From Thermoanaerobaculia bacterium (GTDB lineage Bacteria > Acidobacteriota > Thermoanaerobaculia > Multivoradales > SZUA-115), in the NCBI GenBank assembly GCA_036274895.1, contig DASUEU010000027.1, forward strand, positions 136,883 to 200,882: a DNA stretch of 64,000 nucleotides, written 5' to 3'. The translations under genes and the position numbers were made by a program. Below, in pieces: positions 1,653 to 41,394 of this stretch; within the stretch, counting starts at the first letter, position 1, and the number at the start of each line of letters is the position of its first letter. The notes under the pieces are model-generated. The model ran no database searches and was not told where the DNA came from. It saw only the letters and a list, made by a program, of their open reading frames with translations.

Positions 1653-2718
1653 CGCCCTCGATCGGCAGGATGATCTCGACCGCGAAGATACCGCCATCCC
1701 CCCGCTTCACGCAGCGGGCGGATCGGCCATAAGCCAGGCGCAGGCGCTCCTCGGCGCCGGCCAGGCCGAAGCCGGTGCGCTTGCCGGTGGCGGGGCGACC
1801 CGGGTCGTAGGGGTTGGTCACCGTCACCTGGAGCTGCGCGCCCTTGCGCTCGGCCTTGAGCTCAATGGTGCCCCCCTCGGTGAGGCTGGCCACGCCGTGG
1901 CGCACGGCGTTCTCCACCAGCGGCTGGAGCAGGAGGGCGGGCACGCTCACCCCCTGGGCTTCGAGGGCCATCACCACCTCGAAGCCCAGCCTCTCGCCGA
2001 AGCGGAACCGTTCCAGAGCGACGTAGGAATGAGCCAGCTCGATCTCCCGCTCGAGCGGGACTCGCTTCTCCCGGCCGATCTCGAGGCTCGCGCGCAGGAA
2101 GTCGGCGAGGGCGATCGACATCGCCCGGGCTGCCTTGGGATCGCTGCCGCAGAGAGAGGCCAGGGAGTTCAGGGTGTTGAACAGGAAGTGGGGATTGACC
2201 TGGGCGCGCAAGGCGGCGAGCTCCGCCTCGCGCGCCGCCACTGTGAGCTTCAGCTCGCGGCGCCGGGCCAGCTCCCGCTCCTCGAGAGCGAGGAGCACGT
2301 AGTGCAGAGCCGCCGCCAACAGGTAGAAGAGAACACCCAGGGCGAGCAACGCCGGTCGTCGTGCCGTGAAAAGTCGGGCGAGCTCGTCCGGCCCGAGAGC
2401 CGTCTGTGCCCGGACGGCGAGCTGCCCCACCAGGACCCAGAGGGAGGAGGAGAAGAGTGCCGCCAGGGCATGGGTGAGCACCAGCCGCAGGGCCCCCGCC
2501 CCCACCAATGGCGTGGCTCGGCAGGGGTAGTAGGCGGCCAGCCCGATGAAGGCGAAGAGCAGGGCGAGCAGGGCGGCGAGCCCGGCGGCCTGGAGCTGCC
2601 GCCCTTCGCCCGGTGCCAGCAAGAGGTAGACGATGCCGCCGCCCAGGACGAGCCAGGCTCCGAAGTAGCCCAGAGCCCGATCGAGACCCCGGGGGCGGCG
2701 CAGGAGACGGGGCAGCAT
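1630..2718 (-). CDS. Sensor histidine kinase, LytS/YehU-type (His_kinase pfam06580 + HATPase_c), 4 TM
   Basis: N-terminal TM helices; NPHFLFNTLNSLASL H-box; C-terminal ATPase G-box (GFGLAG). Confidence 0.85.
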   Translation of the reverse strand: MLPRLLRRPRGLDRALGYFGAWLVLGGGIVYLLLAPGEGRQLQAAGLAALLALLFAFIGLAAYYPCRATPLVGAGALRLVLTHALAALFSSSLWVLVGQLAVRAQTALGPDELARLFTARRPALLALGVLFYLLAAALHYVLLALEERELARRRELKLTVAAREAELAALRAQVNPHFLFNTLNSLASLCGSDPKAARAMSIALADFLRASLEIGREKRVPLEREIELAHSYVALERFRFGERLGFEVVMALEAQGVSVPALLLQPLVENAVRHGVASLTEGGTIELKAERKGAQLQVTVTNPYDPGRPATGKRTGFGLAGAEERLRLAYGRSARCVKRGDGGIFAVEIILPIEGADADPAG

Positions 2719-2727
2719 GGCAGGCCG

Positions 2728-3441
2728 CTAGTCCTCGTCGTCCTTCTCGATCTCGTGAGAGATCCCCACCCCGCCCATGATCACCGTGCCGCGGACCAGC
2801 AGCTCCTCGCCGGTGTCCACGGCCGGTGGCTCGGTCTTGTCCTCGACACCGCCCAAGAGGGGCAGCACCTCGCTCCTCACCCTCCAACCCCGCGGCACAG
2901 CGATGTGGACGCCCCCCATCACGGCGAAGACGTCCACCACCGCCTGGCCACTGCCGATCGCGGCGCCCCGCAGGTCGAGCTCGCAGCCGCCCATCACCGC
3001 GGTGAGCGAGGCCTGCCGGAAAGCCTGACTGCGGTTGGTCAAGGTACTGCCGCCCATCACGGCCGTGCCGTTCGTGACTTGCGAGTCCTCGAGCCGCTCT
3101 TCCCCGGCGAACCCGCCCCGCAAGGCGCGGAAGATCAGGAGGCCGCCCACGGCCACCAGGGCCAGGGGCCAGAGCTGGCCGGCGGAGACCGGCAGGTAGT
3201 TGAAGTTCGCGGCCAGAAAAACGAAGCCGAGGAGGACGAGCACCACGGGGCCCCCATACCGGCTCCGGCGCTCGGTCAGCATGGCCAGGCCCACGATCAC
3301 CAGGATCAACGGCCAGAAGCGACCGAGGTTGTCGATCTCGACGACGTCGAGGTTGTCGAGCAGGAACAACAAGCCAATGGTCATCACGATCAGCCCGGCC
3401 GCCATCCGGCCGAACGAGACCTGGAGCTTGGACTCTCTCAT
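2728..3441 (-). CDS. LiaF-like membrane protein (DUF2154 / toast-rack C-terminal domain)
   Basis: Two N-terminal TM helices plus a C-terminal region with repeated VMGG...I motifs typical of the LiaF/YvqF C-terminal domain. Confidence 0.7.
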   Translation of the reverse strand: MRESKLQVSFGRMAAGLIVMTIGLLFLLDNLDVVEIDNLGRFWPLILVIVGLAMLTERRSRYGGPVVLVLLGFVFLAANFNYLPVSAGQLWPLALVAVGGLLIFRALRGGFAGEERLEDSQVTNGTAVMGGSTLTNRSQAFRQASLTAVMGGCELDLRGAAIGSGQAVVDVFAVMGGVHIAVPRGWRVRSEVLPLLGGVEDKTEPPAVDTGEELLVRGTVIMGGVGISHEIEKDDED

Positions 3442-4001
3442 CGCGACACCTCTCTTTCGGTCTCGGCCTTGGTGCGGCGGGTCGGCAGGACGCCAGTTCC
3501 CCGCAGCAGCAGGAGCAGGCCGATCAGGATCAACAGCACGGGCCAGGAATTACCCCAGTGGAGACCGCCCCAGCCCCAGACGCTGACCAGCAGCCAGGTG
3601 CCGATGGCGAGGGGCCAGAGGCCGTCCGCCCAGGTCTCCTTGGGCTTGGGCAAGGCGATGCCGATGACGCCCGCGAGGATGATCAGCAAGGGCCAGGAGT
3701 TGCCGAAGTGCAGCCCGCCGGTGTGGAAGACGCTGGCCAGGGCCCAGGCCCCGACGCCGATCAGCCAGACTGCCGAGCGCACTTGCCCGCGCCGCTCGGC
3801 CCGGAACAGGCCGAAGGCGCCGACGCCGATCAGGATCAAGGGCCAGAGCTTCACCAGCTCGCCGAAATGCACCCACTCGAGCTGCTCAGCCAGAAACGCG
3901 AAGCCGATGGCAACCAGCACCAACCCGAAAGCCAGGGTCTCGTAGCGGATGCCCCGCTTGGGAACCGGAGGGGGTAGCGGTTGGGGACCTTCCAGGTTCA
4001 T
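3438..4001 (-). CDS. Membrane protein with three tandem DUF5668 (LiaF/LiaI-type TM) repeats
   Basis: Three repeats of the (H)FG(N)LWPLILIGVG...R motif. I chose the start at MNLEG because an AGGAGG sits 8 nt upstream; the six-frame ORF begins 25 codons earlier. Confidence 0.65.
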   Translation of the reverse strand: MNLEGPQPLPPPVPKRGIRYETLAFGLVLVAIGFAFLAEQLEWVHFGELVKLWPLILIGVGAFGLFRAERRGQVRSAVWLIGVGAWALASVFHTGGLHFGNSWPLLIILAGVIGIALPKPKETWADGLWPLAIGTWLLVSVWGWGGLHWGNSWPVLLILIGLLLLLRGTGVLPTRRTKAETEREVSR

Positions 4002-4214
4002 CTTCAACCTCCTTTGCCCGCAAAGGGCGGGCGCTTCGAGGTCAGGGTACGCGGGCCTCAAGCGGGCGTTTCCCAACCACCGCCCAATGGCGGTAAAGCG
4101 TCGCCGAACGGCGCTCGGTGCCAGCTGTCACGGTGCCGCGGGGCGACTTCCGTATAATGGCCGAAAGCTGATGCTTCCCATCGATCACGGGTTCTGAGCA
4201 GAGCCGCTCTGGAA

Positions 4215-29418: not shown

Positions 29419-30444
29419 TCAGCGCCTCCGCCCTTTGCCCGGCGCCAGTCGCCAGACCGAGCGGCCCTCGGGCTGCTCGAGCACCCACCAGGAGCCGTCG
29501 GGGGCGGTGGCGGAGGCCGCCGCCGGCAGCCGCCCCGGCAGGGCCACCCCCCGCGTGAGGTCGATCCAGCCGTCCCCGACCGCCACCAGATCCGTGTCGG
29601 GCAGCGGCAGGGCGCGCCGGCCGTCCGCAAACCGGCCGGCCGCCGAGGGCGTGAGGTCCCGGCGCGACAGCAGCTGCCATTCCCCGAGCGCGGACAGGGC
29701 CAGCAGCCACGAGCCGTGCGCTACCAGGGCCTCGATCCGGCTGCCGTCGAAGAGGGGGAGGCGGGCCTTCACGGCTCCCTCCGGTCCCAGCAGCTCGACG
29801 GTCGGTGGCGGCGCCACCGCCGGCTCGATGGCGAGCGAATAGGCCGGCCCACGGCCGCGCGCCACCAGCTTGCCGTTCGCCTCGTAGGCGAGCGCGGTGA
29901 GCGGCCCGGCCTCCCAGGCTCCGGCCTGGCTCTGGCAGTCCGGCAGTACCAAGACCACTCTGCCGCTCGGGCCGCTGCCGCCGAGCGTGGCCTCGGCGAG
30001 TCCGGCGATGCCTTGCGCCGGGCCGGGCACCAGCCGCGAGACCCCGCTCTGCCGTGCGCGGCAGACTTCGCGCCCCTCCTCGATCCTCACCAAGTCGCCC
30101 CCGAGGGCCAGCCACAACGTGCCGTCCCGACCGAAGGCGAGGTCGGAGAGCCAGCCGTCCGCGGTGTAGAGAAAGCCGTTCCCTCCTTCGGGCAGCTCCA
30201 CGCGCACCCGGATGCCGTCGCTCCAAGCCAGGAGGCGGCGCTGTGGGTGGAAGGCGGCCGGGCCCTCACCCGGCAGGTCGCGGACCTTCTCGAGGGAGAG
30301 GCGGCCTTGCTTGGCACCGAAAGCCAGACCGGGCGCCCAGCCCTCGGCAATCCCGGCCGGGGTGCCGGCGGCGTGTACGACCGAGCCTGAAAGGATGAGC
30401 CCGAGCGAAAGCCCGAGAAGGAACGAGGGCCGGGTGGATCTCAT
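29419..30444 (-). CDS. Secreted hypothetical protein
   Basis: Signal peptide; no recognisable domain. Confidence 0.5.
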   Translation of the reverse strand: MRSTRPSFLLGLSLGLILSGSVVHAAGTPAGIAEGWAPGLAFGAKQGRLSLEKVRDLPGEGPAAFHPQRRLLAWSDGIRVRVELPEGGNGFLYTADGWLSDLAFGRDGTLWLALGGDLVRIEEGREVCRARQSGVSRLVPGPAQGIAGLAEATLGGSGPSGRVVLVLPDCQSQAGAWEAGPLTALAYEANGKLVARGRGPAYSLAIEPAVAPPPTVELLGPEGAVKARLPLFDGSRIEALVAHGSWLLALSALGEWQLLSRRDLTPSAAGRFADGRRALPLPDTDLVAVGDGWIDLTRGVALPGRLPAAASATAPDGSWWVLEQPEGRSVWRLAPGKGRRR

Positions 30445-30525
30445 CGTTCGATGGTACCAGGGGACCCTTGACAGGACAGAACGACGTTTGTAGAGTTAAC
30501 AGCGTTAAGTTCAGGAGGTGCGTTC

Positions 30526-31158
30526 TTGGGCAGCAAGGAGCGACGTGAGCGAGAGCGGGAGGAGCTTCGGGGCAAGATCCTCGAAGCCGCCCGCGAACTC
30601 TTCGCCACCGAGGGCTACGAGGCCGTAACGATGCGCAAGATCGCCCAGCGCATCGAGTACTCGCCGACGGCGATCTACCTCCACTTCAAGGACAAGCTGG
30701 CCGTGATGCGGGCCCTCTGCGACACGGATTTCCTGGCCCTGGCGCGCCAGTTCCACAAGATCGCGGCCATCGCCGACCCGATCGAGCGGATCCGTGCCGC
30801 CGGCAGGGCCTACGCCGCCTTCGCCTTCGCCCACCCCAATCACTACCGCCTGATGTTCATGACCAGCCATCCGCACGAGACCGTCGAGGAGTCTGCGATC
30901 GAGCAAGGCAACCCCGACCAGGATGCCTACGCCTTCCTGCGTCTGGCCGTCGAGCAGGCGATCGCCTCCGGCCGCTTCCGTCCATCGGTGACGGACCCCG
31001 ACCTGATCGCCCAGCTGTTCTGGAGCGGTCTGCATGGGCTCATCGCCCTCCAGTGCACGCACTGCGACGACCCATGGGTCACCTGGAAGCCGCGCGAGGA
31101 ACTGGTGGAACGGATGATGGACGCACTGCTCACCGGCCTCGCCGCCGTGAAAGGCTGA
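30526..31158 (+). CDS. TetR/AcrR family transcriptional regulator
   Basis: HTH with TMRKIAQRIEYSPTAIYLHFKDK; TTG start as listed in the ORF track. Confidence 0.85.
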   Translation: MGSKERREREREELRGKILEAARELFATEGYEAVTMRKIAQRIEYSPTAIYLHFKDKLAVMRALCDTDFLALARQFHKIAAIADPIERIRAAGRAYAAFAFAHPNHYRLMFMTSHPHETVEESAIEQGNPDQDAYAFLRLAVEQAIASGRFRPSVTDPDLIAQLFWSGLHGLIALQCTHCDDPWVTWKPREELVERMMDALLTGLAAVKG

Positions 31159-31161
31159 TTC

Positions 31162-32289
31162 GTGGTCAACCTCGCGCTCAAGAACCTCCTCCACGACAAG
31201 TTGCGTGCCCTGATCACGATCTCGGGCGTCGCCTTCGCCGTCACCCTGGTCTTCGTCCAGGTCGGGCTGTTCCTCGGTCTGCTTTTCAATGCCTCGGTAA
31301 CCATCGATCGCATTCCCGCGGACCTCTGGGTGACCTCGAAGAACACCGCCAACATCGACTTCGCACAGACCTTCCCCGAGATCGCCATCCAGCGCGTGCG
31401 CTCGGTGCCCGGCGTGGCCCGCGCGGACAACCTGATCGTCTGGTTCATGAACGTTCGGTTGCCGTCGGGTGCGCAGGAAGGCGCCCTGGTCTACGCCCTG
31501 CACGACTTCTCCGCCTGGGGTATCCCCTGGCGGGTCGAGGAGGGCGACCTCACCGACCTCAAGCGGGGCCGCTACTTCTTCCTCGATCAGTCGGCCACGC
31601 GGCGCTGGGGTGAGTTTGAGGTCGGGCAGTATCGCGAGGTCCTGGGCAGCCGGCTCAAGCTGATCGGTCGCACCCAGGAAGCCGAGTCGTTCACCACCAC
31701 GCCGATCGTGTTCATGGACTACGACCTGGCCCAGGAGATCTCTCCCTTCGATCTCGCGGGCAAGACCACCTACGTGCTGGTGCGCCTGGCACCAGGTGCG
31801 GACGTGGCGGCGGTGCGTGCCGAGATCCAGAAGCGCCTGCCCTACAACGACGTCTTCACCCGTGAAGAGTGGCGGGAACGCTCGCGCTCCTACTGGGTGG
31901 ACTCCACCGGTCTTGGTCTCAACATGATCATGACCGTCTTCCTGGGTTGCCTGGTGGGCGTGGTGGTGGTGGCACAGACCCTCTACACCTCGACCATGGA
32001 GCACTTGAAGGAGTTCGGCACGGTCAAGGCGATCGGCGGCGGCAACCGCCAGATCTACTCGATCCTCGGCCAGCAGGCGACGGTGGCCTCGGTGCTCGGC
32101 TTCCTCTCCGGCGCCGCGATGGCTTTCGCCCTCAAGCCGGCGATGGCGAAGATCAGTCTGAAACTGCTGATCTCGAACCAGCTCGTCCTCCAAGTCTTCG
32201 CCGGCACTCTCCTGCTCTGCCTGGCCGCGGCCCTGATCTCGTTCCGCAAGGTGGCGAGGATCGATCCCGCCCTCGTGTTCCGTACCTGA
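31162..32289 (+). CDS. ABC transporter permease (FtsX/MacB-like)
   Basis: N-terminal TM, large periplasmic loop, and a C-terminal FtsX-type 3-TM bundle. Confidence 0.8.
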   Translation: MVNLALKNLLHDKLRALITISGVAFAVTLVFVQVGLFLGLLFNASVTIDRIPADLWVTSKNTANIDFAQTFPEIAIQRVRSVPGVARADNLIVWFMNVRLPSGAQEGALVYALHDFSAWGIPWRVEEGDLTDLKRGRYFFLDQSATRRWGEFEVGQYREVLGSRLKLIGRTQEAESFTTTPIVFMDYDLAQEISPFDLAGKTTYVLVRLAPGADVAAVRAEIQKRLPYNDVFTREEWRERSRSYWVDSTGLGLNMIMTVFLGCLVGVVVVAQTLYTSTMEHLKEFGTVKAIGGGNRQIYSILGQQATVASVLGFLSGAAMAFALKPAMAKISLKLLISNQLVLQVFAGTLLLCLAAALISFRKVARIDPALVFRT

Positions 32290-32301
32290 CCGGAGACAGC
32301 C

Positions 32302-32973
32302 ATGCCTGTGCTCGAAGCGACCAACGTCAAGAAGACCTTTACCGAAGGGCGCGAGACCGTGGAGGTTCTGCGCGGCGTCTCCCTCACCCTCGAGCCGGGC
32401 GAGGTGGTTGCCCTTTCCGGACCCTCGGGCTCGGGCAAGACCACCCTTCTCTCCATCCTCGGCTGCATCCTGACCCCCAGCGACGGCCGCGTGGTGATCG
32501 AAGGGACCGAGGTGGATGCCGCCCGGCCGGGGGATCTACCGGAGATCCGCCGGCGCTCGATCGGCTTCGTCTTTCAACAGTTCAATCTGTTTCCCGCCCT
32601 GACCGCTCGGGAGAACGTCGAGTACGCCTTGAACATCAAGGGCGTCGCCGGGCGCGCTGCCCGCCGGCAAGCCGAGCGGGTGCTCGACGAAGTGGGCCTC
32701 GCCGATCGCCGCCACTTCCTGCCCCGGGATCTCTCCGGCGGGCAGAAGCAGCGGGTGGCGATCGCCCGTGCCCTGGCCGGCGACCCGGCCATCCTGCTCG
32801 CCGACGAGCCCACCGCCAACCTCGACTCCGAGGTGGGCGGCAAGATCCTGACCCTGTTTCGGGATCTCGCCAAGCGCGAGAACCGAGCCCTCCTGATCGT
32901 CACCCACGACCCCAAGGTGCTGGGCGTCGCCGACCGCGCGGTTGCCATCCGCGACGGCCTGATCGCTGCCTGA
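32302..32973 (+). CDS. ABC transporter ATP-binding protein (MacB/LolD-type)
   Basis: GPSGSGKTT Walker A, LSGGQKQRVAIARAL signature, LLADEPT Walker B. Confidence 0.9.
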   Translation: MPVLEATNVKKTFTEGRETVEVLRGVSLTLEPGEVVALSGPSGSGKTTLLSILGCILTPSDGRVVIEGTEVDAARPGDLPEIRRRSIGFVFQQFNLFPALTARENVEYALNIKGVAGRAARRQAERVLDEVGLADRRHFLPRDLSGGQKQRVAIARALAGDPAILLADEPTANLDSEVGGKILTLFRDLAKRENRALLIVTHDPKVLGVADRAVAIRDGLIAA

Positions 32974-32993
32974 GCCTCGAGAGGAAGATCCCC

Positions 32994-33899
32994 GTGAGAA
33001 CGCCATCCTCCCCGTCCCTCGCCAAGAAGCTCCTCCTCCCCCTTCTGGGCGCCGCCCTGGTCGCCATGCTGGTGGCCCAACTGCGGGGCTTCGAGACAGC
33101 CCGGGCCAGCGTTCCAGCCGCTCCGGCCCAGCCGGGCGGCGAAGCCGGCGACTCCCGCATCACCGCCGAGGGTCGGCTGGTGGCCTACCCGGGCGCCGAG
33201 GTGACCATCGGCAGCGACCTCGCCGGCACCGTGGTGCGACTGCTGGTCGAGGAGAAGATGGAAGTGAAGCAGGGCCAGTTGCTCGCCGAACTGCGCTCGG
33301 ACGACGTGGCGGCCGAGCTGGCCGAGGCCCGCGCTCGTGTCGCCGAGACCGAAGCGGACCTGCGCCTTTACGAGACCGAGGTTGCTCGCGCCGAGCGCCT
33401 GGCCGCCGACGGGGTGATCGCCCAGCAGCGGGCGGACGTCGCCCGCCGGGACCGCGACGCCGCCCTCGCACGGCGCGAGACCGCCGTCGCCGCCGTGGCC
33501 CGGCTCACGGCTGTCCTGGCCAAGAGCCGCATCCTGGCGCCGATCTCCGGGTTGGTGACCAGCCGCCTGGTCGATGCTGGCGAGACCGTCGAGGCCGGCG
33601 AGGAGCTGCTGACCATCGCCGACCTCCGCCGCACCCGCGTGGAGGCCGAGGTGGACGAGTACGACGCCGGCCGGATGGCCCTCGGGCTCTCCGTCGAGGT
33701 CTCGGCCGAGGGCTTTCCCGGTCAGACCTGGCGCGGCGTGATCGAGGAAATCCCGGATGGCGTCACCAGCCGGCGCATCAAGCCCCAGGACCCCGGCCGC
33801 CCGCAGGACACCCGGGTGCTGCTGGTCAAGGTCGCGCTGGCCGAGCCCACCCCCTTGAGGCTCGGCCAGCGGGTGGAGGTGGAGATCGGCGGGGAGTGA
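32994..33899 (+). CDS. Efflux transporter periplasmic adaptor subunit (HlyD/MFP family)
   Basis: GTG start with a GAGGAAG RBS; N-terminal TM, coiled-coil region, ILAPISGLV lipoyl-like motif. Confidence 0.75.
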   Translation: MRTPSSPSLAKKLLLPLLGAALVAMLVAQLRGFETARASVPAAPAQPGGEAGDSRITAEGRLVAYPGAEVTIGSDLAGTVVRLLVEEKMEVKQGQLLAELRSDDVAAELAEARARVAETEADLRLYETEVARAERLAADGVIAQQRADVARRDRDAALARRETAVAAVARLTAVLAKSRILAPISGLVTSRLVDAGETVEAGEELLTIADLRRTRVEAEVDEYDAGRMALGLSVEVSAEGFPGQTWRGVIEEIPDGVTSRRIKPQDPGRPQDTRVLLVKVALAEPTPLRLGQRVEVEIGGE

Positions 33900-33906
33900 A
33901 GCACGG

Positions 33907-35187
33907 TCACGGGTAGTAGAGATAGCAGACGCTGGCCCAGTCGCTGCAGCAGTTGCCGTCGAACTCGCAGCCCCAGTTGCAGCTGCAAGCCGCTTCCGGG
34001 GGATCTTGGCCGCAGCGGCCGTAGCAGCTGGCGTCCCAATCGTCGGGGTAGGTCTGGCAGTCGGTGACCACCCGCAGCGTGGCCCCGAAGGTGCCGCAGT
34101 AGGGAGGGACACCGCTCTGCGAGCCGCCGTTGCAGTTCTGGGCCGAGGCCGAGACCAGGGACTCGAGGTGTCCGTCCGCCACCGGGGCAGAGAACCACAG
34201 GGTGCCCATGGGATCGTCGCAGCACCAGGGGTCGTTCTCCTCGATGTACTCGCTGACCGCGATCCCCTGTCCATCACAGGCGCCGTCCTGGATCATTTCG
34301 TAGAAGGAACCCTGCCAGACCTCGACCGGATCGGTCAGATCGCCGCCGTACCAGGAGCCGTAAGGGTTCGACCACTGGGAGTCCCAGGTGTCGCAGTTGC
34401 AGACGTTGCCCCACTCGCCGCCATTTGGCTTGGAGGGCTTGGGCCCCTTGAAGCAGGTGCGATGGTCGTCCGGGCAATCCCGACCGCGGGGGCTCGAGCC
34501 GAAGTAGACCCCGATGTCGCCCGTCATGGCCCCCTGGCCTGGGGAGTGGAAGGAGTCCAGGTTGGTACTGCACACGCCGTGGCCCGCGTGGCCATTGCAT
34601 TCGAGGGCCCAGTAGCGGTTCATGAAGCGGTCGCGGCTGTAGACCAGGGCGCTGCACCGGCAGTAGTCGGGGTACCAGGAGCGCAGGCCGAGCTGCGGGG
34701 CTGGGACCGGAGGGGCCTCGGTCCGCCGTCGGCCGGACTTGAACTCGCTCGCCGTCCAGCCGGTTTCGCCCCGGAACTCCTCCTCCAGCTTCGCCAGGGA
34801 GAGCTCGAGCTGCCCGCAAAGCTCATCCAGCCCCAGCGCGAGTAGGCAACGGTCCCTTTCGACCTCGAGCACCGCCCGCTGGTAGAGCAGGTCGACCAGC
34901 CGGCCGAGGGAGGCCGAGACGCCGAGCTCCCGGGCCCGCTCGCGAACCTGCGCCTCGACCCGGTGGCGTGAGGCCGTCGCCAGCTGATGCTCGCGGCGCT
35001 CGAGGGAGGAGGCGAGGGCCAGCTTCGCCTGCGGATCGGCATCCAGCTGTGCCTTGGTCTCGCCGAGGGAGACGAGCCCACCGAGAGTTTCCCCTGCAAG
35101 GCAGGGAAGGGTGGTCGCCACCACGAGCAGGGCGGCGAGAGTCAAGAGCAGTGACGAGATTGCGCCGAGGTTTTTCGTTCTCACCAT
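33907..35187 (-). CDS. Secreted Cys-rich protein with a C-terminal somatomedin-B-like cysteine signature
   Basis: AGGAGG RBS and signal peptide (MVRTKNLGAISSLLLTLAALLVVATTLPCLAGE); >25 Cys. The C-terminus CSCNWGCEFDGNCCSDWASVC fits C-x-C-x3-C-x5-CC-x-D-[aromatic]-x3-C. Confidence 0.65.
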   Translation of the reverse strand: MVRTKNLGAISSLLLTLAALLVVATTLPCLAGETLGGLVSLGETKAQLDADPQAKLALASSLERREHQLATASRHRVEAQVRERARELGVSASLGRLVDLLYQRAVLEVERDRCLLALGLDELCGQLELSLAKLEEEFRGETGWTASEFKSGRRRTEAPPVPAPQLGLRSWYPDYCRCSALVYSRDRFMNRYWALECNGHAGHGVCSTNLDSFHSPGQGAMTGDIGVYFGSSPRGRDCPDDHRTCFKGPKPSKPNGGEWGNVCNCDTWDSQWSNPYGSWYGGDLTDPVEVWQGSFYEMIQDGACDGQGIAVSEYIEENDPWCCDDPMGTLWFSAPVADGHLESLVSASAQNCNGGSQSGVPPYCGTFGATLRVVTDCQTYPDDWDASCYGRCGQDPPEAACSCNWGCEFDGNCCSDWASVCYLYYP

Positions 35188-35287
35188 GGCACCTCCTGTG
35201 CGGTTATGGCAATGAGCGGTATATTGCCCCAAGAAGCGACCCCGCCCCGCCGCGGCGGGGCAGAGTCGATGAGAGATCCCTCCTCCG

Positions 35288-35461
35288 TCAGAACGAGCTG
35301 TTACAGCTACCGCAGTGGTGCGAGCCGTCGTGCCCGGCGGACCGATCGCAGGAGCCCTTCCAGCTGTTGGGGCAATCACCGTGGGTGGCGCCGCACTCGC
35401 CCTGATCCTCCGGGTCCTGGCTGTCCGGGGGCTGCTTCTTGGAAGTGATCTTGGGGCTCAT
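35288..35461 (-). CDS. Unannotated small ORF (57 aa) encoding a Cys/His-rich peptide (MSPKITSKKQPPDSQDPEDQGECGATHGDCPNSWKGSCDRSAGHDGSHHCGSCNSSF)
   Basis: AGGAGG sits ~8 nt upstream of the ATG; GC3 ~85%, typical of local genes. It is below the 60-aa cutoff of the ORF track. Confidence 0.45.
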   Translation of the reverse strand: MSPKITSKKQPPDSQDPEDQGECGATHGDCPNSWKGSCDRSAGHDGSHHCGSCNSSF

Positions 35462-35644
35462 GGGGGTCCTCCTGCTCCTTGGTGTGGAGTCATCCTAGAC
35501 CTTGGTGGCCCGTGGATCCCACTACCTTGGGGCGGCGAGGTGCTGGCCGCTGGGGCGGGCGAAGGGGCCGATCCTGACCCCGCCGACCTTGCGATGCCTA
35601 CGAGCGTACGTTAGTCTGCTCGGCGAACGTACGACGGAGGCCTC

Positions 35645-35866
35645 ATGCGAATCACCGCTTCCAAGCTCCGAGAGAATATCTACAGTCTCCTGGATCAAGT
35701 CCTGACCACCGGCGTGCCCATCGAGATCGAGCGGCGGGGCCGGATCATCCGGCTCGTGCCGACGGAGCCCGCCAGCAAGCTCGATCGGCTGCCGCAGCGC
35801 GACTATCTCGAGGGCGACCCGGAAGATCTCGTTCACCTCGACTGGAGCTCCGAGTGGCGACCCTGA
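35645..35866 (+). CDS. Type II antitoxin, Phd/YefM family
   Basis: MRITASKLRENIYSLLDQV Phd-like N-terminus; overlaps the downstream PIN gene. Confidence 0.75.
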   Translation: MRITASKLRENIYSLLDQVLTTGVPIEIERRGRIIRLVPTEPASKLDRLPQRDYLEGDPEDLVHLDWSSEWRP

Positions 35867-36243
35867 CCTACCTCGACACCCACGTCGTGGCCTGGCTATT
35901 CGCAGGCGAGCTGGCGCTGCTCCCCAAGGCGGTCCGGCTCCGCTTGGAAGAGGGGGACCTGGTGATCTCTCCCATGGTCACCCTGGAGCTGCAGTTCCTC
36001 TTCGAGATCCGGCGTGTCACCAGGCCCGGCCTGGAGGTGGTGGCTGCCCTCGCTGCCGAGTTGGGGCTGCGCACCTGCGACCTGCCCTTTCCCCAGGTCG
36101 TTGCCCGCGCCGCCCACCAGAGCTGGACCCGAGATCCCTTCGACCGCCTGATCACTGCCCAGGCGGCTCTCCGCGAGGCTCCCTTGCTCACCAAGGACGG
36201 AGACATCCACACGCACTATCCGCACGCGGTCTGGAGCGGGTGA
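35854..36243 (+). CDS. PIN-domain toxin (VapC-like)
   Basis: LDTHVVAW...LPFPQ...DRLITAQA PIN acidic residues; 13-bp overlap with the antitoxin. Confidence 0.7.
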   Translation: MATLTYLDTHVVAWLFAGELALLPKAVRLRLEEGDLVISPMVTLELQFLFEIRRVTRPGLEVVAALAAELGLRTCDLPFPQVVARAAHQSWTRDPFDRLITAQAALREAPLLTKDGDIHTHYPHAVWSG

Positions 36244-36495
36244 GGTGTCCGACATCTCTTCGACACCCTCCGACAGCCCTCTTGCCCTCTCCCTGGCCCC
36301 TGCTCGATCGCCCGGTCTCTTCGTAAACAGCAGAAAATAAGTGGCTTAGCTCCGGCAGCCTCAGCCCGACCCCAGCTGGCACCGCCATTGCCTCGTCTCA
36401 CGGGCGCAAGCCACCGTGGCCACGGAGCTCGAACAGCAGAAAGCAACCCCTGCGCGGGAGCGCACAACTTCGAATCCGATCGTAGGAGACCCACC

Positions 36496-36888
36496 ATGTT
36501 GAAGAAGACCCTCGTCGCCGTCCTCGCCCTCGCCGCCATCGCCAGCGCCGCCCATGCCGGCAGCACCTTCCAGCAGAGCTGTTCGCAGATCGAGTTCGTC
36601 TACTCGAGCAACCAGCCGGTGCTGCAGGCCGTCTGCCTCAAGGCCGACGGCACCACCAACTCCACCTCCCTGGTGCTCCAGGGCATCAGCAACCAGAACG
36701 GCACGCTGGTGCAGGGCACGGGAGCCAGCAGCTTCCAGAAGAGCTGCGGCAACATCCAGATCCAGGTCACCAGCCCCACCTCCGTCAACCTGACCGCCTA
36801 CTGCCGCACCTCGAGTGGTTCCTCCAACGCCACCAGCCTGCCGCTCAACAACATCGGCAACAACAACGGCGTGCTCACGGGCGGCTAG
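36496..36888 (+). CDS. Cyanovirin-N homology (CVNH) domain lectin, secreted
   Basis: Signal peptide, then two ~50-aa tandem half-domains, each with 2 Cys: FQQSCSQIEF...LQAVCLKADGTTNSTSLVLQGISNQNGTLV and FQKSCGNIQI...LTAYCRTSSGSSNATSLPLNNIGNNNGVLT. These match the CVNH pattern F..SC...L.a.C....G....s.L.L...I.N.nG.L. Confidence 0.7.
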   Translation: MLKKTLVAVLALAAIASAAHAGSTFQQSCSQIEFVYSSNQPVLQAVCLKADGTTNSTSLVLQGISNQNGTLVQGTGASSFQKSCGNIQIQVTSPTSVNLTAYCRTSSGSSNATSLPLNNIGNNNGVLTGG

Positions 36889-36903
36889 GCCGCAACCTCT
36901 CCG

Positions 36904-36931
36904 ATCCCGGGGGGCGGACGCTCCCCGGGAT
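36904..36931. terminator. GC-rich hairpin (9-bp perfect stem ATCCCGGGG/CCCCGGGAT, 10-nt loop) between convergent genes
   Basis: Perfect inverted repeat 15 nt after the CVNH stop and ~10 nt before the convergent kinase-like gene stop. There is no U-tract, as is common in high-GC genomes. Confidence 0.5.
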
Positions 36932-36941
36932 GCCGCCCTGT

Positions 36942-37568
36942 TCAGGGTGCCCAGAGGCCGCCGGTCGCTTCGAGCCAGTCAGCGATGCGATCCGCCGCCA
37001 GGGCGGGATCCCCAGCCGAAACGTCCAGCTCGAGCCGGGGCAGCAGAGAGCCCGCGGCGAGCCCCCGCAGCACTTCTTGCTCCTCGACGAAGATCGACAG
37101 GTCGCCGTACTGGCCGGGATTGCCGGACACCAGCAGCCTCTTCTCGCGGGCGGCGGCGAAGGAGTCCGGGTTGCGGGTCACCAGCACCAACCGGAAGCCC
37201 AGGGGGAGGAGCCGCTCCTCGAGCCAGTGGAAGTCGTAGCGCCGGCCGTGCTGGCGCTCTTGATAGGCCATCGTTGAGAGGTGGAAGCGGTCGACGATCC
37301 ACGAGTAGTAGCGCTGGAGCTCGAAGAGCCGTACCCAGGTGCGATAGGTCTCGAGGGCCAGCTCCTCCTCCTCGGGAAGGAAGTTGATCAGGCCGCGGCC
37401 CCAGGGGGTGTTGGTGAAGCCGCACCACTCGGCCGAGATCAGGGGTGAGTGGTAGCGGTATTTGCGCGGTCCCACCACCCGAGGATGCTCGTTGAGGGCG
37501 AAGGCGATCTCCGTCTTGCCGGTCAGGCGGGTGCCTTCGAGGATGACCTTGGGACAGAGCTTGGGCAT
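36942..37568 (-). CDS. P-loop NTPase, deoxynucleoside-kinase/thymidylate-kinase-like
   Basis: 208 aa; VILEGTRLTGKTE Walker A in a dNK-like context; DRFHLST region resembling the dNK ERS motif; RBS before the ATG at 37568. The rest of the 597-aa six-frame ORF is antisense artefact. Confidence 0.55.
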   Translation of the reverse strand: MPKLCPKVILEGTRLTGKTEIAFALNEHPRVVGPRKYRYHSPLISAEWCGFTNTPWGRGLINFLPEEEELALETYRTWVRLFELQRYYSWIVDRFHLSTMAYQERQHGRRYDFHWLEERLLPLGFRLVLVTRNPDSFAAAREKRLLVSGNPGQYGDLSIFVEEQEVLRGLAAGSLLPRLELDVSAGDPALAADRIADWLEATGGLWAP

Positions 37569-38627: not shown

Positions 38628-38983
38628 ACGGCGGGGGAGCCTAGCAGGCGGTGGTCTGGGGTTCGAGCGAGGAGGCTGGAAAAATGGCGACGGTTTTGCC
38701 ATTCCCCCCTTCTGTCTCGGCAACAGCGCCGCCATCGTGTCGGTCGTCTCGCCGGGATCCCCATCCGGGCGCTGTCACTCGGGGTGGGCGACCGTCCTCT
38801 CCGGAGCCCACTTCAACTGCGATTGTTGCGTCTTTGCGTCTTTTTCACCTGGCTCAAGATTTGCAGTGTTCCAGTTTCCACTTCCGAGCTGCACTATAGG
38901 GATGCACAGCCATTCCCCGGCCAACCGCGGCGTTCGGGGAGACCTCAGTTCCCGACACCGTCGCTTTCGAAGGAGGAAGAACG

Positions 38984-41394
38984 TGAAGGACAGAACCCTA
39001 CCCATCCCACTCGACGCCCGGCGGCGGGCGACGAGGCGCGCGGCCCTCGCCACCGCGCTCGCGCTGGTCCTCCTGACCGGCGGCTCCGCTCTGGCCGGCC
39101 ACGACGACGTTGGTGAGAAGTGGCAGGCCCAGGGTCCGGCCCCCAACACCGAGGGGCAGACCGAGAACGTGACCCCCGACAACCAGGTCGTGGGTGCCGT
39201 CCACGTCGTGGTCGCTCATCCCACCTCGCCGAGCACCCTCTACGTCGGATCGGTGAACGGCGGCGTGTGGAAGACCACCAACGCCACCTCCAACAACATC
39301 AAGTGGAAGCCCCTGACGGATGACCTGGGCTCGCCCTCGATCGGTGCCCTCGACATGGATCCCAGCGTGCCCAGCCACAAGACCCTGGTGGCCGGCATCG
39401 GCGGCTTCTCGAGCCTGGGCCGCTTGCGGGGCGCGGCGATCGGCCTGCTGCGCACGACCAACGGCGGCGAGAGCTGGACCGTGATCAACGGTGGCGGCAC
39501 CCTTCTCGGCAAGAACATCTCCGGCGTGGCGGCCCGGGGCAACACGCTGGTGGTTTCAGTCAACACCGCCGACGCCTTCACCTTCCCCAACATCGGCATC
39601 TTCCGCTCGGCGGACGGTGGCGCCACCTTCACCCAGATCTCAGTCGGCAACGGCGCCGGCACCGGTCTGCCCGGCGGCGTCGCCAACGATCTGGTGGGGG
39701 ATCCCCTGAACCCGAGCCGCCTGTTCACCAGCATCCTCTTCGCCAACTCGCTCGGCGGACTGAACGGCGTGTACCGCAGCGACGACACCGGGGCCACCTG
39801 GACCAAGGTCAGCAGCCCGGCCATGGATGCTCTGCTGATCTCGGGCGTCACCAGCAACGTGGAGTTCGCCGTCGGTCGCCACAACAACGTCTATGCGGCG
39901 ATTGCCAACAGCGGTCGGCTGGCCGGCGTGTTCCGCTCGGGCGACGGCGGCGCCACCTGGACGGCGATGGACCTGCCGCTGACCAACGAGGGCTCCCTGA
40001 TCGGCATCCACCCCGGCGGCCAGGCCTCGATCCACCTGTCGATCGTGGCTGACCCGACCGACGCCCACATCGTCTACATCGGCGGCGACCGCCAGCCCCT
40101 GTTCAACGAGGTGGCCAACCCGCCGCTTTCGGACTTCCCGAACTCGATCGGCGCCGTCGACTTCTCCGGCCGCCTCTTCCGCGGTAACGCCTCCTCGCCC
40201 GCGGGCAGCCAGTGGGTGCACCTCACCCACTCTTCGAGCCTCGGCGCTCCCGGCGGCGGCACGGCCTCCTCGAGCTCGCCCCACGCCGACTCCCGCGAGA
40301 TGACCTTCGACGCCCACGGCCGGCTGATCGAGACCGACGACGGCGGCATCTTCCGGCGCTCGAACCCCCGCGACAACACCGGTGACTGGACCTCGCTCAA
40401 CGGCAACCTGCAGGTCGGCGAGTTCCACGCCACCACTTCGGACGAGCTGTCGAACATCGTCTTCGGCGGTACCCAGGACATCGGCACGGACGTCCAGGAC
40501 CTGCCCTTCGACCTCGAGTGGTCGACCCTCTTGGGCGGCGATGGCAGCGACACCGCCGTCGACGACGTCTCGAACCCGGCCTTCTCCACCCGCTTCTCCT
40601 CCGCCCAGTTCCTCCAAGCCTTCAACCGCACCTTCTGGGACGCTGCCAACAACTTCCTGGGCTTCGACTTCCCGACCCGCACGCCGATTGGCGGCAGCCC
40701 GGCGATGGTGGCCCAGTTCTACACCCCGGTGCGGATCAACAACGTCGACAAGAACCGCCTGATCTTCGGCGCCAACAACGGCGTTTACGAGAGCCAGGAC
40801 CAGGGCTTCACCGTGCTGCGCATCGGCGCGGGCATCGTGGTCACCGGCAACCCCAGTGACCCCATCGGCTACGGCGCCACCGGCAACCCCGACATCCTCT
40901 ACCTCGGCACCACCGACGACGTCTGGGTGCGCACCGCCGCCCATCCGGCGCCGCTGGTGCTCTCCGCCACCTTCCCGGGCAACGGCACCGGCCGCGCCGT
41001 GCGCGACATCGCCATCGATCCGGACAACGGCAACCAGGCCTTCGCGATGAACCTGGGCGGTGTCTACCGCACCCAGGATGCCGGCGCCACCTGGACGGAC
41101 GTCACCGGCAACCTCCTCACCTTCCCCATCACCACTCCCCGCAGCCTCGCCCTGGCCCGCACTTCCGAGGGCGACGCCATCGTGGTCGGCACCGTGGGCG
41201 GCGTCTACATCGCCACGGCGGACGACGGCTTCGCGGTCTGGCAGAAGCTGGGCGAGGATCTGCCCAACACCCACGTCTTCGAGCTGGAGTACGACGCCAG
41301 CACGGACACCCTCGTCGCCGGCACCATCGGTCGCGCCACCTGGAAGCAGAAGAAGCTCTCGGAGACGATCGAGGAGATCAACAACGATGACTAG
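38984..41394 (+). CDS. Secreted BNR/Asp-box repeat beta-propeller protein (sialidase/GH74-like fold)
   Basis: GTG start after a GAAGGAGGA RBS; signal peptide; >=6 Asp-box motifs (SADGGATF, SDDTGATW, SGDGGATW, TNGGESW, TQDAGATW, SQDQGFT). Confidence 0.7.

Follow-up and report, generated by a model that had tools for sequence, protein, structure and literature searches.

The gene and its flanks

The gene considered here is a short open reading frame (sORF) within a 64,000-nucleotide stretch of DNA from a Thermoanaerobaculia bacterium, which was analyzed as a whole and is referred to below as the window. Its coding sequence for a 57-aa protein (35288..35461, minus strand, TGA stop included; MSPKITSKKQPPDSQDPEDQGECGATHGDCPNSWKGSCDRSAGHDGSHHCGSCNSSF) begins with ATG, runs for 57 codons to the TGA and has no further in-frame start upstream, and a Shine-Dalgarno (SD) sequence, AGGAGG (35468..35473, minus strand), lies 6 nt 5' of the ATG. 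The GC content at its three codon positions is 0.52, 0.59 and 0.86, and the GC3 of the flanking genes is 0.81-0.96. A preliminary description of this DNA had proposed a real small coding gene of 57 codons with an AGGAGG ribosome binding site and a genome-typical GC3; the ORF, the SD sequence and the GC3 of 0.86 are all confirmed. The ORF had also been described as unannotated, which it is not: the identical 57-aa protein is publicly deposited as 'MAG TPA: hypothetical protein VF017_05295 [Thermoanaerobaculia bacterium]', encoded on a 317-kb contig.

The product is divided into a hydrophilic N-terminal tail of mixed charge (residues 1-22; 35396..35461, minus strand), variable in sequence and length, and a conserved Cys5His3(+1) core (residues 23-57; 35291..35395, minus strand) that reads CGxxHxxCPNSWKGSCDRxxGHDGSHHCxxCNSxF. 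The five Cys have the spacing first reported for them (C-x6-C-x7-C-x11-C-x2-C), and the His number four (H27, H44, H48 and H49) rather than five.

A GC-rich hairpin with a 14-bp stem (35237..35268, minus strand) begins 20 nt past the stop codon and is followed by GCUUCUU. The fold that includes this 3' hairpin has an energy of -46.7 kcal/mol (z = -2.2), and the hairpin is kept in the syntenic locus L002, the closest relative of the window. It fell short of the T-run criterion of the terminator scan, whose terminator-like matches lay only inside the ORF and on the wrong strand. Lying between the sORF and the gene for a Cys-rich protein downstream of it, the hairpin is probably a terminator or an attenuating stem; across the family, a long GC hairpin is found directly 3' of the stop codon in about half of 23 loci. 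No sigma-70 promoter was found by a promoter scan near the sORF, and no known RNA element or riboswitch by an Rfam search of 34900-35900. Likewise, exact upstream 6-8-mers were shared across the family loci no more than in shuffled sequences, a crude test that a degenerate operator could escape.

The gene downstream of the sORF, on the same strand (33907..35187, minus strand), encodes a secreted protein of 426 aa with a signal peptide, 25 Cys and a C-terminal match to Somatomedin_B (E 7.7e-6), a domain that is unusual in bacteria. The N-terminal third of this protein is coiled-coil-like, and the protein is 86% identical in L002. Upstream and divergent from the sORF are a phd antitoxin gene (35645..35866, plus strand) and a PIN toxin gene (35854..36243, plus strand) that overlap by 13 nt. 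The two flanks are as the preliminary description had them. Just 5' of the phd SD sequence, the heptamers CGTACGT and ACGTACG lie 22 nt apart (35605..35633, plus strand) and are probably the operator of this Phd/VapC module. The region 36493..36888 (plus strand) encodes a secreted CVNH (cyanovirin-N homology) protein that scores 84.7 bits against the NCBIfam 'mannose-binding lectin' model (cut-off 80) and also stands beside the toxin-antitoxin (TA) pair in L002. With respect to base composition, parts of 30000..36999 have a GC content of 0.65-0.69, two of the seven 1-kb bins are at 0.69 and 0.73, and the whole window is at 0.70; there is a mild GC dip around the sORF and no strong sign of foreign origin.

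Coding status and selection

An initial homology search retrieved eight other proteins of 55-60 aa (E 1e-11 to 1e-21). Selection was analyzed over the 35 core codons of nine loci by Nei-Gojobori counts. The ratio dN/dS was defined for 33 pairs and amounts to 0.05-0.5 in 32 of these; dS is saturated in three more pairs, and the lone exception, the pair L001-L017, has only about two synonymous differences. The core differences among the nine loci fall at codon positions 1, 2 and 3 in the numbers 238, 259 and 426, and invariant core residues are encoded with synonymous swaps (TGC/TGT, CAC/CAT and AGC/TCC/TCG). In addition, most homologous loci carry a GGAGG-type SD sequence at an equal distance to the start codon. 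Conservation of the reading frame in relatives had been suggested as a check on the gene, and the outcome is favorable: the frame is conserved, the changes are mostly synonymous and dN/dS is low. Because it has homologs of the same length and a reading frame under purifying selection, the sORF goes far beyond chance; the 57-codon ORF is a genuine conserved gene with its core under purifying selection.

Distribution of the family

The family comprises about 60 sequence clusters, and wherever a member carries a taxonomic label, its source is a Thermoanaerobaculia or Holophagales MAG. When 185,579 species were scanned, each represented by one genome, 12 loci were found, all in Acidobacteriota MAGs (Thermoanaerobaculia, Thermoanaerobaculaceae and Holophagales). 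A filter-free HMMER profile search of 1.84 billion representatives returned only 29 proteins at E <= 1e-3, nearly all of them 46-73 aa long, a second search based on a word index gave 37 clusters, and a scan of metagenome contigs added only six short loci. No relative was found in the PLSDB plasmids, GenBank phages or IMG/VR. Given the species scan, the search of 1.84 billion representatives and the lack of plasmid, phage and viral relatives in these collections, the family is rare, chromosomal and lineage-restricted. Its members carry no Pfam domain and bear the sole name 'hypothetical protein'; the family is undescribed and, as far as labelled sequences show, restricted to Acidobacteriota (Thermoanaerobaculia and Holophagales).

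One MAG (Thermoanaerobaculia SMAG_U1959) contains two diverged paralogs of the sORF (L025 9980-10165 and L026 6544-6702), in neighbourhoods that differ. The top match of the deep search, a 1767-aa repeat protein (P0010), was discarded as spurious, as it matches only via short 'ACPNSW' segments.

Tail, core and predicted fold

For the anatomy of the family, 58 distinct members were pooled from alignments of 9, 40 and 37 sequences. Their lengths range over 46-73 aa, with tails of 11-38 aa and a core whose length hardly ever departs from 35 residues. Mean pairwise identity is 17-18% in the tail and averages 56-78% in the core, a disparity also seen between the window and its closest relative L002, where the sORF core is 89% identical, the tail about 45% and the neighbouring proteins 83-90%. 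The tail is probably disordered. The core follows the pattern C-x3-H-x2-C-x7-C-x5-H-x3-H-x-C-x2-C-x3-[FWY], directly followed by the stop codon, such that the terminal residue is aromatic and the candidate metal ligands are C23, H27, C30, C38, H44, H48, C50 and C53. Among 40 sequences, C23, H27, C38, H48, C50 and C53 are invariant, and G24, C30, G36, H44 and G46 are conserved in at least 90%. Within Thermoanaerobaculia, as represented by the nine-sequence alignment, the non-ligand residues P31, N32, W34, K35, D39, R40, S47, N54 and F57 are also near-invariant. H49, on the other hand, is kept only in close relatives and is replaced by Cys in one genome (L028), and in one subgroup the C30 ligand is shifted four residues along the loop. 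Judging from the aligned sequences, the change of H49 to Cys and the displaced C30 would represent a ligand plasticity typical of metal sites. The core contains exactly five Cys in 56 of the 58 members, and three or four His are present in 54 of the 58. The core is acidic, and the full-length proteins have a median pI of 6.0.

Some metagenomic members depart from this layout. In P0029 (126 aa) two Cys/His domains stand in tandem, P0021 (99 aa) carries a Lys/Ala-rich, histone-H1-like basic N-terminal extension, and several other longer family proteins resemble over-extended start calls.

A hydrophobic N-terminal stretch is absent from 57 of the 58 members, which bears on the reading of the product as a secreted, disulfide-stabilized peptide, i.e., a toxin, signal or inhibitor functionally related to the neighbouring Cys-rich secreted protein. 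The sORF does lie directly upstream of that 25-Cys protein on the same strand in both the window and L002, and one metagenomic member (P0041, 73 aa) is the sole family protein with a hydrophobic, signal-peptide-like N-terminus. However, besides the general lack of such a stretch, the Cys number is constant and odd (five), three His are invariant and the Cys-rich neighbour is limited to the closest relatives, all of which makes secretion extremely unlikely.

AlphaFold, when supplied with the 37-sequence alignment, models the core as short beta-hairpins with no helix, at a pLDDT of 82-87 for the core and 50-57 for the tail; with only the nine-sequence alignment the pLDDT was 49 and the model unusable. 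A PDB fold search with the predicted core gave no counterpart. The family libraries were similarly silent: the peptide had no match at E <= 1 in Pfam or NCBIfam, and a Pfam scan of 40 members gave nothing significant, the best recurring model being DUF7836 (seven members, best E 0.11). Matches in PHROGs were all insignificant (best E 0.024) and included an HNH endonuclease phrog in four members (best E 0.066). It is the ligand pattern, together with the hairpin topology of the model, that suggests the label of a putative zinc knuckle.

Gene neighbourhoods

When the flanking ORFs were compared all-versus-all by BLAST and the immediate neighbours scanned with Pfam, no recurrent partner gene emerged in about 19 distinct neighbourhoods, only synteny between close relatives. 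The Phd/PIN pair and the Cys-rich secreted protein are shared by the window and L002. In L001 the sORF homolog is accompanied by BrnT and, 2 nt downstream, by an RHH-PIN pair. Elsewhere the neighbours are MiaE (L004 and L018), a radical SAM/SPASM enzyme and DUF2188 (L005), an FAD/NAD Fe-S oxidoreductase, a glycosyltransferase or OsmC (L006 and L020), a helix-hairpin-helix (HHH) domain protein (L017 and L029), DUF302 (L021), guaA (L022 and L033), ExbD (L023), a BNR protein, a patatin or an acyltransferase (L025 and L039), a CFA synthase (L026), TonB and TauE (L028), a PNP oxidase (L030 and L043), UDG (L031), YjbR (L036), an acetyl-CoA synthetase (L040) and a radical SAM enzyme without detectable similarity to that of L005 (L042). 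Many loci have their own SD sequence and 3' hairpin and no shared neighbour, and the sORF therefore behaves as an autonomous unit.

The location of the sORF next to a TA pair had led to the suggestion of an accessory-looking stretch. The TA pair is indeed present, and a second instance is found in an 'uncultured Acidobacteriota' MAG (L001 10001-10833), where genes for an RHH antitoxin and a PIN toxin follow the sORF homolog in the same orientation after a 2-nt gap, and a divergent BrnT/BrnA pair precedes it. Nevertheless, the suggestion is weak: TA genes appear in two independent contexts, the GC content is slightly below the window mean and there are no relatives among the plasmids, phages and viral sequences searched. 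A functional link to TA modules was rejected, adjacency being confined to just 2 of about 19 contexts (the group of the window and L002, and L001), and PADLOC gave no matches for 37 members, i.e., no known TA or defence model.

Large Sortilin-Vps10/BNR-repeat proteins are encoded 0.1-4 kb from the sORF in the window (38737..41394, plus strand) and in L004 (13899-17162), L028 (5658-8921), L039 (1-1107) and L025 (7799-9862). Those of L004 and L028 are orthologs with 67% identity, and those of L025 and L039 are 53-60% identical. A functional link to these proteins was also rejected, and their proximity is probably due to partial synteny (L004 with L028, L025 with L039) combined with a very abundant paralog family.

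The same survey decides on the sORF as a regulatory leader, in which translation of a Cys/His-rich upstream ORF, together with the hairpin, would lead to attenuation of the Cys-rich gene downstream, leaving no function for the peptide as such. Such an arrangement would be in keeping with the strong 14-bp hairpin between the sORF and the downstream gene, retained in L002. However, the amino acid sequence is conserved where that downstream gene is missing, in about 19 unrelated contexts, and it is specific residues that are under purifying selection; this reading is effectively refuted and its probability close to negligible.

The neighbourhoods also bear on the earlier proposal of a ribosomally synthesized and post-translationally modified peptide (RiPP) precursor, according to which residues 1-22 would be a leader and the Cys/His-rich C-terminus an enzyme-modified core, perhaps exported. 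The size and two-part layout fit, a MacAB-type ABC exporter operon is found a few kb downstream in the window (and in the syntenic L002), the homolog in L005 has a divergent radical SAM/SPASM gene next to it, and some RiPP-derived cofactors (PqqA and MftA) also have conserved cores. No gene recurs in the roughly 19 neighbourhoods, however, and in particular no maturase family does: the radical SAM/SPASM gene of L005 is confined to that locus, the radical SAM gene of L042 has no detectable similarity to it, and the gene of L031, which carries a MoaA-type Mob_synth_C domain, resembles it solely in the generic radical SAM domain. Several genomes have housekeeping neighbours (guaA, UDG and PNPOx). 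Furthermore, an N-terminal part with 17% identity and no recognition motif, next to a nearly invariant C-terminal part (56-78% identity), is the reverse of what a leader and a core would be; the C-terminal part is predicted to fold autonomously, and no NCBIfam or Pfam precursor model is matched (peptide, E <= 1; 40 members, E <= 10). The proposal is thus not upheld, and a RiPP precursor is very unlikely. A variant in which the sORF encodes the precursor of a conserved-core ribosomal metallophore or redox cofactor (cf. PqqA and MftA), with the modifying enzymes encoded elsewhere, is very unlikely indeed; if it were true, the invariant Cys and His and the C-terminal aromatic residue would be modification sites instead of ligands of a folded protein.

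In L005, an ORF of 60 aa that lacks Cys and is rich in Pro, Asp and Glu precedes the radical SAM/SPASM enzyme (2553-4015, minus strand). The two are divergent from the sORF homolog and may be a peptide-modification pair of their own, with no relation to the sORF family.

A putative two-metal mini-domain

We favor, with moderate confidence, the interpretation that the sORF product is a stand-alone cytoplasmic micro-protein whose core binds two metals, most likely Zn, and serves as a small binding module. In the 35-residue core, two metal ions in tetrahedral coordination, most likely Zn2+, would hold short beta-hairpins together as a mini-domain; their proposed ligands are the five Cys and three His of C-x3-H-x2-C-x7-C-x5-H-x3-H-x-C-x2-C, and the N-terminal ~22 residues would constitute a disordered hydrophilic tail. 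The metals would probably be structural, and the domain would most likely bind a protein or another cellular partner encoded elsewhere, rather than being an enzyme or a modified peptide.

Several lines of evidence point to this interpretation. A metal-folded domain is suggested by the constant odd number of Cys, the three invariant His, the apparent ligand plasticity, the lack of a secretion signal and the compact, hairpin-rich predicted fold, and the eight ligands suit two tetrahedral sites. Zn2+ is the default for cytoplasmic Cys3His or Cys2His2 sites; a set of five Cys and three His would be equally suited to Fe, an Fe-S cluster or Cu. The metals are taken as probably structural because the non-ligands P31, N32, W34, K35, G36, D39, R40, G46, S47, N54 and F57 are nearly as conserved as the ligands, and it is this non-ligand conservation, along with the lack of accompanying metal-homeostasis genes, that favors a binding module over a buffer or a redox protein. 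We infer in this way the binding of metal as such, the identity and number of the metals, the assignment of ligands to sites and the role of the core as a binding module. The metal-binding peptide of the preliminary description fits this picture, insofar as the sequences of about 58 members, with eight invariant or near-invariant Cys and His, a His-to-Cys swap, an odd five Cys and no signal peptide, speak for it.

The conserved ligands of a small, cytoplasmic, Cys/His-rich protein would also be expected of a metal buffer or metallochaperone resembling metallothioneins, whose function would be the binding and release of Zn, Cu or Cd without a macromolecular partner, and the two paralogs in one MAG and the two tandem domains in one metagenomic protein could be read in the same sense. 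However, the protein has only five Cys (9% of residues), as opposed to the nine Cys and two His with which SmtA builds a Zn4 cluster (PMC3323870), and the Pfam metallothionein model gave no match among 40 members at a threshold as loose as E <= 10. Moreover, the very strong conservation of non-ligand residues is unusual for metallothioneins, SmtB/ArsR, Zur, efflux pump and other metal-homeostasis genes are not recurrent in about 19 contexts, and no common operator-like upstream k-mer was found. A role as metal buffer thus appears unlikely.

A quite improbable alternative is a small redox or iron protein, in which the core would hold an Fe-S cluster (3Cys-1His [2Fe-2S] as in CDGSH proteins) or rubredoxin-like Fe and serve as an electron carrier or redox sensor. 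The invariant mixed set of Cys and His is compatible with an Fe-S cluster, the source lineages are largely anaerobic or microaerophilic, and the 'C-D-R...H-D-G-S-H' segments are loosely reminiscent of the CDGSH motif. Yet the CDGSH signature, C-X-C-X2-(S/T)-X3-P-X-C-D-G-(S/A/T)-H, is absent, with only split 'CD' and 'DGSH' fragments being present, and the zf-CDGSH, rubredoxin, HiPIP and ferredoxin models of Pfam are unmatched in all members. Identity as a CDGSH domain was rejected on these grounds, i.e., the missing motif and the lack of a Pfam match. In addition, eight ligands suit two mononuclear sites better than one cluster, and redox partner genes do not recur nearby.

If the two-metal interpretation holds, Cys5His3 is a new ligand signature and the protein an ordinary object, a metal-knuckle micro-protein, in an undescribed form that overturns nothing known. 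If its structure were solved, it would probably represent a new two-metal mini-fold, and a partner, if found, could point to a step in regulation or metal handling that is specific to the lineage. Small proteins as a class are systematically neglected, and few genes have been characterized in the Acidobacteria, which abound in soil and sediment.

Comparison with known systems

The only known zinc ribbon with any sequence resemblance to the Acidobacteriota family is that of eS31/S27a, a small beta-hairpin metal domain of an archaeal and eukaryotic protein that is borne by the ribosome. The resemblance is local, over a C-terminal knuckle, H-[ED]-x-x-H-x-C-G-x-C-N-x-x-F, and a preceding 'CP' knuckle, whereas the spacing of the first knuckle differs and the Acidobacteriota proteins have extra C-x3-H candidate ligands. 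The match between archaeal S27ae and the family is not significant (E = 0.085, or 0.47-0.8 with a broader profile), and, from a comparison of sequences, the resemblance is probably convergent.

Another point of reference is given by PqqA and MftA, short precursors with the conserved part at the C-terminal side, ending near a conserved aromatic residue. The Acidobacteriota proteins are likewise short, with a conserved C-terminal part and a terminal aromatic residue. To our knowledge, precursors of this type are always clustered with a radical SAM maturase and a chaperone, whereas no such maturase or chaperone gene is conserved beside the Acidobacteriota family.

The bacterial metallothioneins BmtA/SmtA (PF02069) are also cytoplasmic proteins of about 55 aa with Cys and His ligands and a zinc-finger-like hairpin around the metal (PMC3323870). 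The Acidobacteriota protein is of similar size, cytoplasmic and equipped with Cys and His as candidate ligands. Unlike SmtA, in which 9 Cys and 2 His hold the Zn4 cluster and a beta-hairpin is packed against an alpha-helix (PMC3323870), the family has 5 Cys and 3 His, no helix in the predicted model and no SmtB-type neighbour. Membership in the BmtA/SmtA metallothioneins was rejected in view of the wrong ligand number, the lack of a helix in the model and the absence of a PF02069 match.

The closest functional analogy is offered by the archaeal zinc-finger micro-proteins, namely the C(P)XCG proteins of Haloferax volcanii (e.g., HVO_0758) and Brz of Halobacterium, which are described as stand-alone proteins of <70 aa composed of hardly more than a metal-knuckle domain and a short tail (PMC11241148, PMC10716476, PMC6562870, PMC2253796). 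They are encoded by single genes without a fixed operon partner and take part in regulation or stress adaptation via binding partners (PMC11241148, PMC10716476, PMC6562870, PMC2253796). The Acidobacteriota family is not a member of the C(P)XCG group, since the defining motif pair is absent: the sORF product has CPNS in place of CPxCG and a single CGSC, and the family has one CxxC only. It also differs in that its ligands are mixed Cys and His, eight in all and thus enough for two sites, in their spacing, in its bacterial origin and in having no detectable sequence relation to the archaeal proteins. The Acidobacteriota gene is likewise stand-alone, of a size within the same limit and without a fixed partner gene. 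By analogy, it is the archaeal C(P)XCG and Brz micro-proteins that the Acidobacteriota family would most resemble in the way it works.
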